Shown here: positions 219 through 3,316 of the stretch, in pieces
Layout: each line of letters begins with the position of its first letter
Position numbering within the stretch: the stretch's first letter is position 1
Program-made: the position numbers and the translations under genes
Origin: Candidatus Kerfeldbacteria bacterium
Lineage (GTDB): Bacteria; Patescibacteriota; Patescibacteriia; SBBC01; CAIJZX01
Reading direction: 5' to 3'
Assembly (NCBI GenBank): GCA_016193315.1
Contig: JACPSJ010000001.1
Coordinates: 406,723 to 470,722 of the forward strand
Length of the DNA stretch: 64,000 nucleotides
Notes under the pieces: generated by a model
Seen by the model: only the letters and a program-made list of their open reading frames with translations
Database searches by the model: none
Told to the model about the DNA's origin: nothing

Positions 219-1772
219 ATGCCCCCCACCCTCTATCGGAAATACCGTCCTCAAACCTTCGCTGAGCTGGTTAATCAGCAGCACATTCGGATTACCCTCC
301 AACAAGCACTGGTCCAGGGGCGAGTAGCACACGCCTACCTTTTTGCCGGACCGCGCGGCATCGGTAAGACGACGGTCGCTCGCCTCTTGGCCCGGGCGGT
401 CAACTGCCAGCGGCGCCAACCAGACGGCGAGCCATGCAATCGTTGCCCCACCTGCCAGGCCATGTTGAGCGGATCGGCTCTAGACATCATCGAGATTGAT
501 GCCGCCTCGCAAACCGGAGTCGATAATGTCCGCGAAAACATACTCCACAACGCGCGGGTCGGCCCGACGCTTGGACAGTTCAAGGTCTTCATCATTGATG
601 AAGTCCACATGCTATCGTTAGCCGCTTTCAACGCCCTGCTGAAAATGCTCGAGGAACCGCCGGCTCACGCCCTGTTCATTCTGGCTACCACTGAGGTTCA
701 TCGGGTGCCAGCCACCATCATTTCCCGGAGTCAACGTTTCGATTTTAAGCGTCTGGGCGTCCAAGACATGGCCGAACGTCTCAACCGCTTGGCGCAGCAG
801 GAAAAGCGTCAGTTGGCTGACGGCGTGGCCGAACGAATTGCTCGTTTCGCCCACGGCTCAATGCGCGACGCCGAAAGCATGCTCGGTCAACTCTTCTCCT
901 TCCAGGAGGCGGTCATCAACCGCGAGGTGGCTGATTTGGTGCTGCCGCGGTCGAACGAGGAAGTGGTAGCGGAAATCATGGCCGCCGTCGTTCATGGCCA
1001 AGCCGCCGCCGCCATGGTCGCTTTCCATCGCTACTGCGATGAGGGCGGCGACATTCCGGTCCTGGCCCACGAACTAGTCCTGGCCGGCCGCACGTTGATG
1101 TTGGCCTCGGTTGACCCGACCTTGTTAGATCAAGTGCTCGATGATCAACAGCCGGCGCACGTCCAAGAGCTACGATCGCTGGTTCGTCTCGGATCAACCG
1201 AACGATTTATCGATTTGGTCGAAGCGTTGACCACGGCCGAGCGGCAACTCCAACGCAGTACATTTTTGGAGTTACCGGTCGAGGTGGCCTTGATCAGGGG
1301 CGCGACATTCGGTCAGCCCGCGGATACGGACCGCGCTTCACCCGAGACGAAAACGTCCCCCGCCCGGCCGACCCCGCCCGAGCCGCCGGCCGGCCAGCCC
1401 AAACGGGCGAATGTCACAAAACCTCTGCCCCTGGCCATGGTCCAGCAAGCCTGGCAGACGGTTCAAAAAAAGTTGAATGGTAGCCAGCCAAGCCTGCGCT
1501 TGTCTTTACAGCAGGCCACCATCAAGGAGTCGAAACCCGGCCTGGTTGTCCTCGAAGTCCCCTTTGCGCTCCATCGCCAGCGGCTGACCGATCCAAAGCA
1601 CCGGCAGGTTCTGGAACAGGCGCTGTCCAAAGTCCTCAAGACGCCGTTCACCATTGAAGTAGTGACTTCAAATGGGGCACCACCTCGAGCAGTTCAGCCC
1701 GGCCCGGCGAAAAAAGGTGATCCCGAATCCGGCAGCGACCTGTGGGAAAAGATCGTGGCCTCGTTTAGTTAG
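219..1772 (+). CDS. dnaX: DNA polymerase III subunit tau/gamma (DnaX)
   Basis: ATG start. The N-terminus reads YRKYRPQTFAELVNQQHI, followed by a Walker A box GPRGIGKTT, a CxxC…CPTC zinc module and the SRSQRF motif, all typical of clamp-loader DnaX. Confidence 0.9.
   Translation: MPPTLYRKYRPQTFAELVNQQHIRITLQQALVQGRVAHAYLFAGPRGIGKTTVARLLARAVNCQRRQPDGEPCNRCPTCQAMLSGSALDIIEIDAASQTGVDNVRENILHNARVGPTLGQFKVFIIDEVHMLSLAAFNALLKMLEEPPAHALFILATTEVHRVPATIISRSQRFDFKRLGVQDMAERLNRLAQQEKRQLADGVAERIARFAHGSMRDAESMLGQLFSFQEAVINREVADLVLPRSNEEVVAEIMAAVVHGQAAAAMVAFHRYCDEGGDIPVLAHELVLAGRTLMLASVDPTLLDQVLDDQQPAHVQELRSLVRLGSTERFIDLVEALTTAERQLQRSTFLELPVEVALIRGATFGQPADTDRASPETKTSPARPTPPEPPAGQPKRANVTKPLPLAMVQQAWQTVQKKLNGSQPSLRLSLQQATIKESKPGLVVLEVPFALHRQRLTDPKHRQVLEQALSKVLKTPFTIEVVTSNGAPPRAVQPGPAKKGDPESGSDLWEKIVASFS
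1466..1472 (+). other. Slippery heptamer A_AAA_AAG inside dnaX, a putative programmed -1 frameshift site. The -1 frame stops 3 codons later (gtt gaa tgg TAG at 1481-1483).
   Basis: dnaX codons are caa(1464) aaa aag ttg. Shifting -1 at AAG gives K-K-V-E-W-stop. A stem, GCCTGC…GCAGGC, lies downstream at 1492-1516. Confidence 0.5.
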
Positions 1773-2431
1773 CCGCTTCGCGAATAGGCGCCTTTTGATT
1801 GCTGCCTGAGCCGGGCCAGGCCTCGGACAAACTCGGTCTTACCCCCGTGAGACGGATGACGAAGTTTTACCGTCTCCATGCCGACCGCGGCTAGAGTTTG
1901 ATGAGCGACGTTGCCGACGGCCACCACATTCTTAATTCGAAAGATATCCATCAACTCCTGAAAAAAGTCTTTCCCCAGCTCAACCTCGCGCTGATTCGGA
2001 GCCCGGTTTGATTGAACGCGACCCGGTTGGAACGGGTGGAAAGGAAAAGCAGACCACAACAGCGGCACAAAGCGAAACTGAGCCAAGGTCGACCATACAA
2101 TGGTAGCTGTCGGTTCTTTATGCACCCGGGTAAACTCTTTCGTTTTCCGATAGCCTTTCTTCTGGCCGAACATCGACAGTGGTTGTACCCCAGACAGCAA
2201 GATATCCTCGCTCATGAACGGCACGCCGGTCAGGCGGCTGCCTTGATACCCCGGTGCCTCGCCGAGCAGGAGTGTCTTCGGTGAAAAACGCTCGACTTCG
2301 CCGAAATACAACTGCAGATTGCGTCGGCGGATGACATTGTGTTTGTTGCCAGCGGCGTACTGATTAAAAAAGTTCCGTCCCGATGGCACTCGGGCGAGTC
2401 TATCGAGGAATCGACCAGTGGTGGACGGCAT
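1769..2431 (-). CDS. Uracil-DNA glycosylase superfamily protein (family 4/5-like)
   Basis: 220 aa. Motif A is LLLGEAPGYQGSRLTGVPF and motif B is HPSHGG, as expected for the UDG superfamily. Convergent 4-nt overlap with dnaX. Confidence 0.7.
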   Translation of the reverse strand: MPSTTGRFLDRLARVPSGRNFFNQYAAGNKHNVIRRRNLQLYFGEVERFSPKTLLLGEAPGYQGSRLTGVPFMSEDILLSGVQPLSMFGQKKGYRKTKEFTRVHKEPTATIVWSTLAQFRFVPLLWSAFPFHPFQPGRVQSNRAPNQREVELGKDFFQELMDIFRIKNVVAVGNVAHQTLAAVGMETVKLRHPSHGGKTEFVRGLARLRQQSKGAYSRSG

Positions 2432-2575
2432 AACGTGATTGTAGCAAACATCAACGCTGAAGGCATGTTTCGGCGACTGAGGGCATTGACGAAGACGTTT
2501 TCAATTCGTATACTGTTGGCGCTGCGAGGTGCTGGCATTGCCATGCGGAAGTTCTACACTATCCCGCCGCCCAGC

Positions 2576-2590
2576 TCCGGGATCGTCTAA
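2576..2590 (+). pseudogene. Displaced 5' fragment of tRNA-Gln (positions 1-15, tccgggatcgtctaa), identical to the intact copy
   Basis: A 15/15 match to the 5' end of the tRNA at 2860, with the same upstream 'gc'. It diverges immediately after the D-loop 'ctaa'. Confidence 0.6.
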
Positions 2591-2594
2591 CCTG

Positions 2595-2609
2595 CCCCGC
2601 CAAATTTCT
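2595..2609 (+). repeat. Left terminal inverted repeat ccccgccaaatttct
   Basis: Perfect reverse complement of 2945-2959. Confidence 0.7.
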
Positions 2610-2614
2610 GCAAC

Positions 2615-2962
2615 ATGAGGTGCTGGGTCTATATTCTCAAAAATCGACAAGGTAGTTATTATATGGGAATCACTACTTTACTGACGGAGCAAAGGCTGAG
2701 TCGTCATAATCGAGGCCATGTCTTGTCCACAAAATTCAAAAGCCCCTGGCACCTTGTATTCACCGAAGAGCATAATAACCGTCGTTCAGCACGTATGCGA
2801 GAAAAACAAATCAAGGGTTGGCATGGTGGAGAAACTTTACAAAGATTCTTGCGCACCGCTCCGGGATCGTCTAATGGTAGGACGCCAGGCTCTGAACCTG
2901 GTAATCTTGGTTCGAATCCAGGTCCCGGAGCGGTGCGCAAGAAAAGAAATTTGGCGGGGTGA
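2615..2962 (+). CDS. GIY-YIG nuclease domain protein (YhbQ/UPF0213-like). The ORF reads through the tRNA and right repeat to TGA at 2960-2962; the real C-terminus may be shorter.
   Basis: The start reads MRCWVYILKNRQGSYYMGITTLL…RLSRHN…REKQIKGW, a GIY…YxG…R…E core resembling UPF0213 small GIY-YIG proteins. ATG start. Confidence 0.65.
   Translation: MRCWVYILKNRQGSYYMGITTLLTEQRLSRHNRGHVLSTKFKSPWHLVFTEEHNNRRSARMREKQIKGWHGGETLQRFLRTAPGSSNGRTPGSEPGNLGSNPGPGAVRKKRNLAG
2860..2930 (+). tRNA. tRNA-Gln (anticodon CUG), intact copy
   Basis: Hand-folded cloverleaf. Acceptor TCCGGGA/TCCCGGA has U1:A72 with G73; U8 is present; D-stem GTCT/GGAC; anticodon stem CCAGG/CCTGG with loop CTCTGAA; 4-nt variable loop; T-stem CTTGG/CCAGG with loop TTCGAAT. 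U1:A72 plus G73 are Gln identity elements in E. coli. Confidence 0.8.
2945..2959 (+). repeat. Right terminal inverted repeat agaaatttggcgggg
   Basis: Perfect reverse complement of 2595-2609. Confidence 0.7.
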
Positions 2963-2963
2963 A

Positions 2964-3016
2964 TAGGACGCCAGGCTCTGAACCTGGTAATCTTGGCCTG
3001 AATCCAAGTCCTGGAG
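2964..3016 (+). pseudogene. Displaced, decaying 3' fragment of tRNA-Gln (positions 20-73)
   Basis: 49/53 identical to the intact copy. The substitutions are T-loop TTCGAAT to CCTGAAT (loses T54/Ψ55), T-stem CCAGG to CCAAG, and acceptor C to T. Confidence 0.6.
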
Positions 3017-3316
3017 CTCAACGTTGGAATCTTATTATACTGAGGGCGAAGGTAGGCGGGTCCCTATCCCGTGTGCCCAATGGCTTGGGTGGTCTTCGTT
3101 CCGAGTAAAAATTTACCCGCGCACCAGACCGGCGGATCCGGTCGGTGCGGGGTTCCGCTCCGCACCGTATCTTGTGATGCCGCCAGCTCCTGCTGACGGA
3201 GCTTCACTATAATCAATATAGATGTGGGAGGTTTTTCTTTGCATGACAATAATACGCGAATAGACTTTTTTGCAAACCATGCTATTGTGAATTTAGGCGA
3301 ACAGGAATAACAACTC

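Follow-up and report, generated by a model that had tools for sequence, protein, structure and literature searches.

Within a 64,000-nucleotide stretch of the genome of Candidatus Kerfeldbacteria bacterium, a member of the Patescibacteria (NCBI GenBank assembly GCA_016193315.1, contig JACPSJ010000001.1, positions 406,723 to 470,722 of the forward strand; hereafter the window, numbered from its first nucleotide), a tRNA-Gln gene is split in its D-loop by a 373-nt insert. The insert is bounded by inverted repeats and carries an open reading frame (ORF) for a predicted GIY-YIG nuclease together with an intact tRNA-Gln(CUG) of its own. The original prediction, made from the sequence alone, had taken it for a compact mobile unit in which a GIY-YIG nuclease and a rescue tRNA occupy the D-loop of an ancestral tRNA gene whose displaced halves are decaying. 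That reading is supported by the recurrence of the arrangement, the covariation of its helices, outer halves that do not match the inner tRNA, relatives that share the dnaX gene order, and base composition.

The split tRNA-Gln gene and its insert

All features of the locus lie on the forward strand. The 5' fragment of the resident (outer) tRNA-Gln gene, tRNA positions 1-15, occupies 2576-2590, ends in the D-loop at ...TCTAA and repeats 2860-2874 exactly; the 15-nt repeat noticed originally in fact extends to 17 nt (2574-2590) with two upstream nucleotides, and to 23 nt at 91% identity. The insert follows at 2591-2963 in place of the universally conserved D-loop TGG, and its junctions, read directly in the sequence (...TCTAA, insert, TAGGAC), agree with the predicted position, length and loss of TGG. 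The outer 3' fragment, from the 3' strand of the D-stem to the discriminator, lies at 2964-3017 and repeats 2878-2931 over 54 nt at 91% identity, with five substitutions; this repeat and the damage to its T-loop had been recognised, with its size put at 53 nt (to 3016) and its substitutions at four. Three of the five fall in the T-loop (TTC to CCT), which now reads CCTGAAT, and the remaining two convert a T-stem G.U into an A-U, a better pair, and an acceptor-stem G-C into a G.U.

Detection of the inner tRNA-Gln(CUG) at 2860-2930, a check set in advance, succeeded: the Rfam tRNA model scores 2860-2930 at 63.3 bits, and ARAGORN calls the gene (2860-2931) as its sole tRNA in the window. Removal of the insert from the outer copy in silico and restoration of TGG gave no ARAGORN call, even at a lowered threshold. 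The outer tRNA-Gln is dead, and the tRNA of the element is the sole intact copy at the locus.

Two perfect inverted repeats are present in the insert. The first, helix P1, is GC-rich, has 15 bp and no mismatch, exactly as predicted, and bounds the insert; its 5' arm, the left terminal repeat CCCCGCCAAATTTCT, lies at 2595-2609 and its 3' arm, the right terminal repeat AGAAATTTGGCGGGG, at 2945-2959. The second, helix P2, had been overlooked. It comprises 21 bp (2846-2866 with 2923-2943), that is, the inner acceptor stem and a 14-bp extension whose strands lie at 2846-2859 and 2930-2943, and in it the discriminator G 2930 is paired with C 2859 (base -1). The 5' strand of P2 doubles as coding sequence for the C-terminus of the nuclease (..FLRTA). 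The nuclease ORF itself (2615-2962, 115 aa) encodes the GIY-YIG domain in residues 1-82 (2615-2860) and, as had been seen, reads on across the inner tRNA and the right repeat to a TGA at 2960-2962, at the boundary of the element. The GC content given originally for the insert, about 43%, holds for the ORF part (43-44%) and not for the whole insert (48%); that of the window is 57.4%. Inside the 373 nt the ORF and the tRNA stand alone, with no tyrosine or serine recombinase gene, and the 64-kb window holds no second copy of the repeats or the ORF, matches at three mismatches being at chance level.

The protein matches Pfam PF01541 over residues 3-71 (56.1 bits against a cut-off of 22.6; E=4.7e-15), which upholds the GIY-YIG domain of the original prediction, with a length given here as 82 rather than 83 aa. 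Residues Y6, Y16, G18, H31 and E63 are invariant across homologues and R27 is nearly so; all are kept in the window protein. Its AlphaFold (AF2) model has a predicted local distance difference test score (pLDDT) of 91.5. Sequence matches in the PDB are modest (1zg2, E=4e-4; 1ywl, E=5e-3), and Foldseek places 1zg2 nearest, followed by the Slx1 entries 6seh, 6sei and 7cq2, at template modelling (TM) scores of 0.63-0.68. Among solved structures the protein lies closest to BH0048 and EF2693, both of UPF0213, and to the nuclease domain of the branched-DNA endonuclease Slx1, in line with the YhbQ/UPF0213-like character first assigned. By sequence and fold the protein belongs to the UPF0213/YhbQ/Slx1-type minimal branch of GIY-YIG proteins; its role as the nuclease of the element is a predicted one. 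No NCBIfam model, PHROGs family (E up to 0.01) or PADLOC entry matched it, no exact-protein record of the 115-aa ORF was found, and 2.9 million viral contigs yielded a single weak relative. Spread by a phage vector and membership of a defence system were both rejected, the former on the single weak viral match and the latter on the PADLOC result.

Recurrence of the element in Patescibacteria

Queries with the single protein, by a genome-contig scan and a word-indexed protein search, returned no close relatives. With an exhaustive HMMER search 2529 relatives were obtained (E up to 0.001; 54% identity for the best), and an alignment-based scan of one genome per species yielded 80 loci (cited below by L numbers), nearly all in metagenome-assembled genomes of Patescibacteria. 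In every one of the 13 closest homologues (48-60% identity) a tRNA-Gln begins 0-13 nt past the nuclease domain. The copies in related genomes envisaged by the original prediction do exist: eight of these 13, all from Patescibacteria, form with the window copy a set of nine full elements, 357-380 nt long, with the common junctions gtctaa[CTTGCCCCGCC...GGCGGGGTGA]agtaggac. The termini of the window copy depart from this consensus, with CCTG for CTTG on the left and TGAA-T for TGAAG-T on the right. With its ORF intact, its termini drifted and the outer T-loop mutated, this copy looks fixed and ageing.

The helices recur with the element. In each of the nine full elements P1 covers 12-20 positions, with 12-17 paired; the distal part varies between loci yet stays complementary (AAATTT/AAATTT, AAAC/GTTT, AAAATCAT/ATGATTTT, ATGATT/AATCAT). 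The P2 extension has 13-16 standard or G.U pairs within 18 scanned positions at all 14 Gln-type loci, where acceptor stem and extension together make 21-23 bp. In an alignment of the nine sequences pairing holds in 95.7% of cells, and both sides have changed in 27 of 50 pairs; such double-sided changes affect 13 of the 21 pairs in P2 with the acceptor stem and 5 of the 14 in P1. The observed pairing was reached by none of 500 shuffles, and it drops to 36-55% when the partner strand is slid by 1-3 columns. Judged from this covariation, both helices are under selection.

The reading frame, too, runs into the neighbouring DNA motifs. It lacks a stop codon until past the tRNA at 12 of the 14 Gln-type loci, it stops inside the tRNA in the tRNA-Glu and tRNA-Lys clades and ahead of the tRNA in the tRNA-Ala clade, and the 5' arm of P1 contains the start codon in L003, L004 and L011. 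The extensions of the homologous ORFs translate DNA motifs like those of the window: the N-terminal RGRLTCPAKF corresponds to cgtctaaCCTGCCCCGCCAAATTT, the C-terminal GSSNGRT to the tRNA D-arm, and the endings ..NLAG*, KKIWRGE and KFGGVK to AAATTTGGCGGGGTGA.

Across the 80 loci, a same-strand tRNA starts between -10 and +60 nt of the end of the nuclease domain in 33. Nuclease clades other than the Gln type pair with intact tRNA-Glu, Ala, Lys, Leu, Tyr, Ser, Phe, Thr, Val and Met, and in several of them broken copies of the matching tRNA could be read in the flanks; the isotypes concerned number at least 12, and nested as well as tandem debris occurs. In the tRNA-Ala clade the break in the outer gene falls in the anticodon loop (in L024 the 5' half matches at 36 of 36 positions), in the tRNA-Glu clade it falls in the D-arm, and the order in the tRNA-Lys and tRNA-Leu clades is 5' fragment, ORF, intact tRNA. 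GC-rich hairpins of other types stand at the junctions in the Ala, Glu, Lys and Leu clades. We are highly confident that these loci represent a recurrent family of tRNA-invading elements that bring a replacement tRNA.

Several of the loci are of interest in themselves. Members of the Ala and Glu clades (L016-L030; for example L024:2880-3420 and L019:2940-3420) end in a double hairpin, TCCCGAT..ATCGAGGA and TCCNCGAT..ATCGGGA, with the ORF, the tRNA or both in the loop of one hairpin, and tRNA-Glu fragments bear double hairpins free of cargo in their D-loops. A hairpin of a third type, CCTGCC..GGCAGG, occupies the D-loops of tRNA-Leu(CAA) and tRNA-Glu 5' fragments (L085:1-520, minus strand; upstream of L020 and L043), and the fragments bearing it precede a GIY-YIG ORF and an intact tRNA. 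L007 (2740-3500) is complex: the D-loop of the outer tRNA-Gln contains two hairpin types, and copies of a ~130-140-nt block flank the nuclease-tRNA unit on both sides; its ORF is joined to the outer T-arm and not to a hairpin, and no group I intron match was obtained. In L013 (3001-3234) the nuclease gene of a Gln-type element that is complete in other respects is cut short by a premature TAG at the conserved Trp, and the outer tRNA of this element differs from the inner one at three positions.

Empty sites and cargo-less hairpins

The origin of the inner tRNA can be judged from the outer halves. In L001-L004, L006 and L011 these halves fit each other and differ from the inner tRNA by compensated changes in the acceptor stem, the stems of L001 being TGCGGGA/TCCCGCA in the inner and TGCCAGA/TCTGGCA in the outer copy. 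Across L001-L004 the inner tRNAs resemble each other at 86-93%. Inner and outer copies are nearly identical in the window, L010 and L013.

The original prediction had also pointed to empty tRNA-Gln sites in relatives. The genomes with the four closest DnaX proteins (56-59% identity) share the upstream gene order of the window, with tRNA-Gln(CUG) first after dnaX. L209 and L210 have a single uninterrupted tRNA-Gln(CUG) beside dnaX, free of nuclease and fragments alike; in L208 an intact tRNA is accompanied by an outer 5' fragment and a 3' fragment, in L207 by a 3' fragment, and neither locus has a nuclease ORF. Empty sites are therefore present, in relatives that are distant and among which the orientation of the tRNA varies. 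Homing-endonuclease genes cycle through gain, degeneration and loss, and by analogy the filled, decaying, remnant and empty states seen here appear to match that cycle. At the level of the family, the sequences favour an insert that is foreign and that comes and goes; the window copy itself is putatively mobile.

In the two Kerfeldbacteria-like relatives with remnants, a conserved block follows the intact tRNA-Gln and ends in the 3' tRNA-Gln fragment (L207:5620-5806 and L208:5572-5775, both on the minus strand). The core of this block, GGATTCGAA[CG]GGGCAGAAG..AGCTCG..CCAGTGRCGGGTCGGCGCTGCCCAGGA, looks as if inserted into the T-loop of a tRNA copy that was displaced; it has no Rfam match in L208 and no GIY-YIG ORF in either genome.

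The genes near the insert in the window are dnaX, a gene of the uracil-DNA glycosylase (UDG) family and a peptidase gene. The UDG-family gene (1769-2431, minus strand) separates dnaX from the tRNA-Gln in the window genome only, the two being directly adjoining, in either orientation, in the four relatives; its interposition and the variable orientation indicate that the locus has been rearranged. The UDG-family neighbour gave no route to an empty site, since its synteny is not conserved. Downstream of the outer tRNA half, two GC-rich palindromes occupy 3085-3167, a region with a sub-threshold Rfam match to MH_s36 (27 bits against a gathering score of 46); the consensus scan marks one of them, at 3143-3167 on the forward strand, as a candidate terminator-like hairpin.

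Hairpins with the ends of the element and no cargo are widespread. A metagenome scan with the pattern CTTGCCCCGC(0-30 nt)GCGGGGTGAAG found them in at least 120 stretches, with 123 distinct sites among the matches listed. D-loop flanks, typically tAGCTCAG[hairpin]TAGAGC, surround at least 61 of the 123 listed sites, and an intact same-strand tRNA lies within 450 nt at 64. In 32 listed cases an intact copy whose flanks are identical is present at the locus, and in that copy the place of the hairpin is taken by TGG (17), TTGG (6), CGG (2) or a close variant; no target-site duplication was seen, the hairpin replacing TGG or TTGG. Insertions were found in D-loops, in anticodon loops and in one T-arm. 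A GIY-YIG ORF occurs within 1.2 kb of 34 of the 123 listed hairpins and of 28 of the 61 in D-loops, far above chance, and no DDE/HUH or other transposase-like gene was seen at the loci examined.

Replacing the hairpin by TGG in silico restored a whole tRNA at 6 of the 123 listed sites, and at five of these six an intact tRNA of that kind stands no more than ~400 nt away on the same strand. Since so few copies can be repaired, the hairpins mark dead tRNA copies, and the notion that hairpin-bearing tRNAs are working copies tolerating an insert was rejected, as a general rule, on these counts. As for the question raised originally, whether the inverted repeats are a generic motif, they are not one within the window and they do recur across the phylum as cargo-less hairpins. 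Because the latter sit at the same tRNA-loop TGG, we read them as non-autonomous derivatives or as a separable module, which argues for mobility.

Two generalisations about the hairpins were tried and dropped. One hairpin type per nuclease clade is not supported, as hairpin type A occurs with several clusters in a sample chosen on that hairpin, and the placement of hairpins always at the tips of host stems was rejected, as the enrichment is explained by the 4-bp D-stem alone. Two further sites are recorded here as side observations. L190 (~725-810, minus strand) contains a tandem array of tagagcaacgccgagatagctcag[hairpin] units that resembles nuclease-driven segmental amplification. In L117 (minus strand, sites 813 and 872) a tRNA-Met-like copy bears two cargo-less hairpins, one in the D-loop in place of TTGG and one in the 5' strand of the T-stem in place of TGGG.

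Mechanism, alternatives and known systems

Overall, we consider it somewhat probable that the insert is a homing-type selfish element that carries a replacement tRNA and has its closest counterpart in the phage nuclease SegB; that it moves by a homing-type mechanism is a more tentative proposal, made by analogy. By this mechanism the predicted nuclease would cut the DNA of tRNA genes in or close to the conserved D-arm, and the element would be copied from a filled allele during repair, as for a homing-endonuclease gene. The carried tRNA would make insertion survivable at first and loss costly later: as the element destroys the resident gene and supplies its replacement, loss of the element would mean loss of that tRNA. 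Cargo-less hairpins would be non-autonomous derivatives, seen only where they are harmless, in dead tRNA copies. The unit would be transcribed from the promoter of the resident tRNA. A consensus scan detected a candidate, TTGACG-17-TATACT, at 2486-2514 on the forward strand, ~60 nt upstream of the outer tRNA and with 10 of 12 matches, which is likely this promoter, now driving the whole unit. In the transcript P1 and P2 may fold as processing stems that free the tRNA; a cut at the tRNA 5' end would leave a nuclease mRNA devoid of a stop codon, and P1 would cover the start region, so that the nuclease would be kept low.

A number of findings weigh against this account. The intact inner tRNA retains the putative target, D-arm flanks and TGG included, so that immunity through site disruption fails by itself to explain self-protection. 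Characterised homing GIY-YIG enzymes carry a DNA-binding domain; the present protein is a bare 82-aa catalytic domain without one, and its C-terminal extension is translated tRNA. A single hairpin type accompanies several distinct nuclease clusters (Gln, Tyr, Ser and cluster 11), some 70% of the listed hairpin sites (89 of 123) have no nuclease ORF within 1.2 kb, and at certain loci (L133, L126, L138, L164) the cassette lies beside hairpin-disrupted copies and not inside the hairpin; the sharing of the hairpin and the separability of the cassette suggest a possible independence of the two modules. G.U and A.C combinations in the P2 extension number 13 and 7, a ratio that does not decide between pairing at the RNA and at the DNA level. 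The inner tRNA of the window is 98.6% identical to the native uninterrupted tRNA-Gln of L209 and is thus not demonstrably foreign. An empty allele did not appear in the window's own population, as represented by contigs from three runs of one Sequence Read Archive series; these contigs are 100% identical to the window where they cover it, up to 2907, and all break in the repeated tRNA, none crossing the right junction. Finally, the loci divide into two synteny groups, so that part of the distribution could be vertical, and from the sequences some inheritance probably is.

The retained target, the missing DNA-binding domain and the separable modules keep two rival explanations alive. According to one, parasites of independent origin are nested: a hairpin like a repetitive extragenic palindromic (REP) sequence or a miniature inverted-repeat transposable element (MITE) is moved by another enzyme that targets tRNA-loop TGG, the nuclease-tRNA cassette landed in it or was captured later, and the GIY-YIG protein plays no part in hairpin mobility. 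The shared hairpin type, the sites lacking a nuclease and the cassettes standing beside hairpins all fit such a history, as do the other hairpin types, or none, seen with other nuclease clades. We nevertheless hold it to be unlikely in view of the single layout and size of the nine full elements, of a distal P1 that adjoins the start codon and changes in concert with the right arm, of the excess of GIY-YIG ORFs near D-loop hairpins, and of loci at which no other transposase-like gene was seen. The other rival is a structure-guided transposition, in which the Slx1-like nuclease cuts the base of a cruciform and the unit enters loops of folded tRNA-gene DNA through host repair and ligation. Its appeal lies in the nearest characterised fold, that of a branched-DNA nuclease, in a protein without a DNA-binding domain, in insertions into D-loops, anticodon loops and one T-arm, always at TGG, and in ends that form a perfect hairpin beginning at the junction. 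Outside tRNAs, however, the flanks of hairpin sites contain stems of at least 5 bp in 4.2% of cases against 3.9% in controls, no target-site duplication was seen, and GIY-YIG enzymes are hydrolytic, none being known to us for strand transfer; we regard this rival as distinctly improbable. That the hairpin and the Slx1-like domain make up a shape-recognising DNA transposon, which would cut its own cruciform and insert at the TGG of folded tRNA-gene loops, with the replacement tRNA as an addiction module that streamlined genomes with single-copy tRNAs could not afford to lose, and with P1 and P2 as processing and self-limiting signals by which the tRNA is released from a nuclease mRNA lacking a stop, is a conjecture we rate as fairly unlikely.

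Two further explanations dispense with a mobile unit. The nuclease and tRNA could form a domesticated, vertically inherited operon with a cellular role, such as tRNA-locus maintenance or pre-tRNA processing, the fragments being relics of one old duplication. An intact ORF with conserved core residues, selection on P2, two synteny groups across divergent hosts, the identity of the population contigs with no empty allele seen, and the drifted termini of the window copy would all suit this view, which is made quite unlikely by the dnaX-syntenic relatives with a clean tRNA-Gln or ORF-less remnants, by the same element ends flanking differing host tRNA-Gln sequences, by the range of isotypes with their nested and tandem debris, by the low GC content of the insert relative to the genome and by the decayed ORF of L013. 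Alternatively, the insert could be an intron removed at the RNA level, by self-splicing or by an endonuclease and a ligase, with both tRNA-Gln copies functional. The minimum free energy fold of 2570-3022 does join the outer halves in a cloverleaf from whose D-loop the insert projects as a long arm (z = -6), and tRNA genes with group I introns are abundant in Patescibacteria (PMC13011429). Yet no intron family, group I or II included, gave a signal at E up to 10 in 2300-3300, nor at the gathering score in 13 related loci; the outer T-loop is mutated and the repaired outer gene escapes ARAGORN; L003-L005 and L007-L009 have outer halves that are broken further or absent; the listed hairpin-bearing copies that become complete after repair in silico are few; and, as TGG is absent, no exon junction restores G18 and G19. 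We consider the intron barely credible and rejected it on the lack of an Rfam intron signal and on the dead outer gene.

Phage SegB, the closest counterpart of the homing-type element proposed here, is a homing endonuclease of the GIY-YIG type; it recognises a motif conserved in tRNA genes, T-psi-C, shows enrichment beside tRNAs and amplifies tRNA segments (PMC2330249, PMC13096335). As with SegB of T4 and T6, a GIY-YIG gene is packed against tRNA genes and co-inherited with them, and the tRNA-segment duplications of SegB resemble the tandem debris at the element loci. Both systems concern conserved motifs of tRNA genes, SegB targeting the T-psi-C stem-loop and the element disrupting the TGG of the D-loop. 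SegB is a phage protein with a DNA-binding region, whereas the element protein is a bare 82-aa domain of the Slx1/UPF0213 branch with no PHROGs match, and the hosts of the element are cellular Patescibacteria. Moreover, SegB does not lie inside a tRNA gene and has neither terminal inverted repeats nor a split target with a whole replacement, all of which the element possesses.

Partial parallels exist elsewhere. Paquin, Laforest and Lang (1994) reportedly described a GIY-YIG ORF of fungal mitochondria that is mobile and brings a replacement gene end (the Allomyces atp6 type). There, as here, an ORF enters an essential gene and brings the displaced part, while the resident part decays downstream; the Allomyces case concerns the 3' end only of a protein-coding gene and has no terminal hairpin, whereas the element carries a whole tRNA and displaces both resident halves. 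Islands and prophages with tyrosine integrases insert in tRNA genes, regenerate the tRNA and leave a fragment as a direct repeat. The element shares with them the insertion in a tRNA gene, the regeneration by element-borne sequence and the displaced direct repeat, and differs in having no integrase, a size of 0.37 kb as against kilobases, a D-loop rather than a 3'-end site, a complete tRNA and inverted terminal repeats. Its cargo-less hairpins, like REP sequences and MITEs, are short, GC-rich, highly similar to each other, found in many genomes and provided with ends common to a longer protein-coding form; unlike these, they replace three bases instead of duplicating them, prefer tRNA-loop TGG and are associated with GIY-YIG and not DDE/HUH proteins.

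In fractured genes, which recur in metagenomes, the halves of a host gene are separated by a free-standing homing endonuclease gene (PMC2677866). The split host gene and the recurrence in metagenomes are common to both arrangements; fractured genes are rescued at the protein level by split inteins, whereas the element rescues by a complete extra gene and the halves die. Closest in host range are the insertions in rRNA genes of the candidate phyla radiation (CPR), non-intron insertions in which GIY-YIG ORFs are sparse and not site-specific (Tsurumaki et al. 2024; PMC11270868). They share with the element the phylum and the presence of GIY-YIG ORFs within insertions in structural RNA genes, insertions that count as neither group I nor group II introns; the likeness is one of description, and they lie in rRNA and not tRNA genes, with no replacement copy or terminal hairpin reported. 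A survey of tRNA introns in Patescibacteria makes no mention of an arrangement such as this one (PMC13011429). The original prediction knew of no description of such a miniature unit, and open-access papers and bioRxiv yielded none. The element would accordingly represent a new build of a tRNA-linked homing-type nuclease gene, placed inside the tRNA gene, with a whole replacement tRNA, terminal hairpins and a bare catalytic domain.

Much of the tRNA debris at these loci in Patescibacteria, namely 5' fragments, hairpin-bearing pseudo-tRNAs and tandem pieces, would be accounted for by the element. The family offers a minimal, 82-aa predicted nuclease with a very conserved apparent target, the D-loop TGG, and a natural case of an mRNA that lies between tRNA halves and is fused to a tRNA. 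If the proposed reading is correct, it would be a cellular counterpart of the SegB-type tRNA-linked nucleases of phages, one that invades an essential single-copy tRNA gene with a whole spare; that spare would make the insertion survivable in genomes of ~1 Mb and, from then on, hard to lose.

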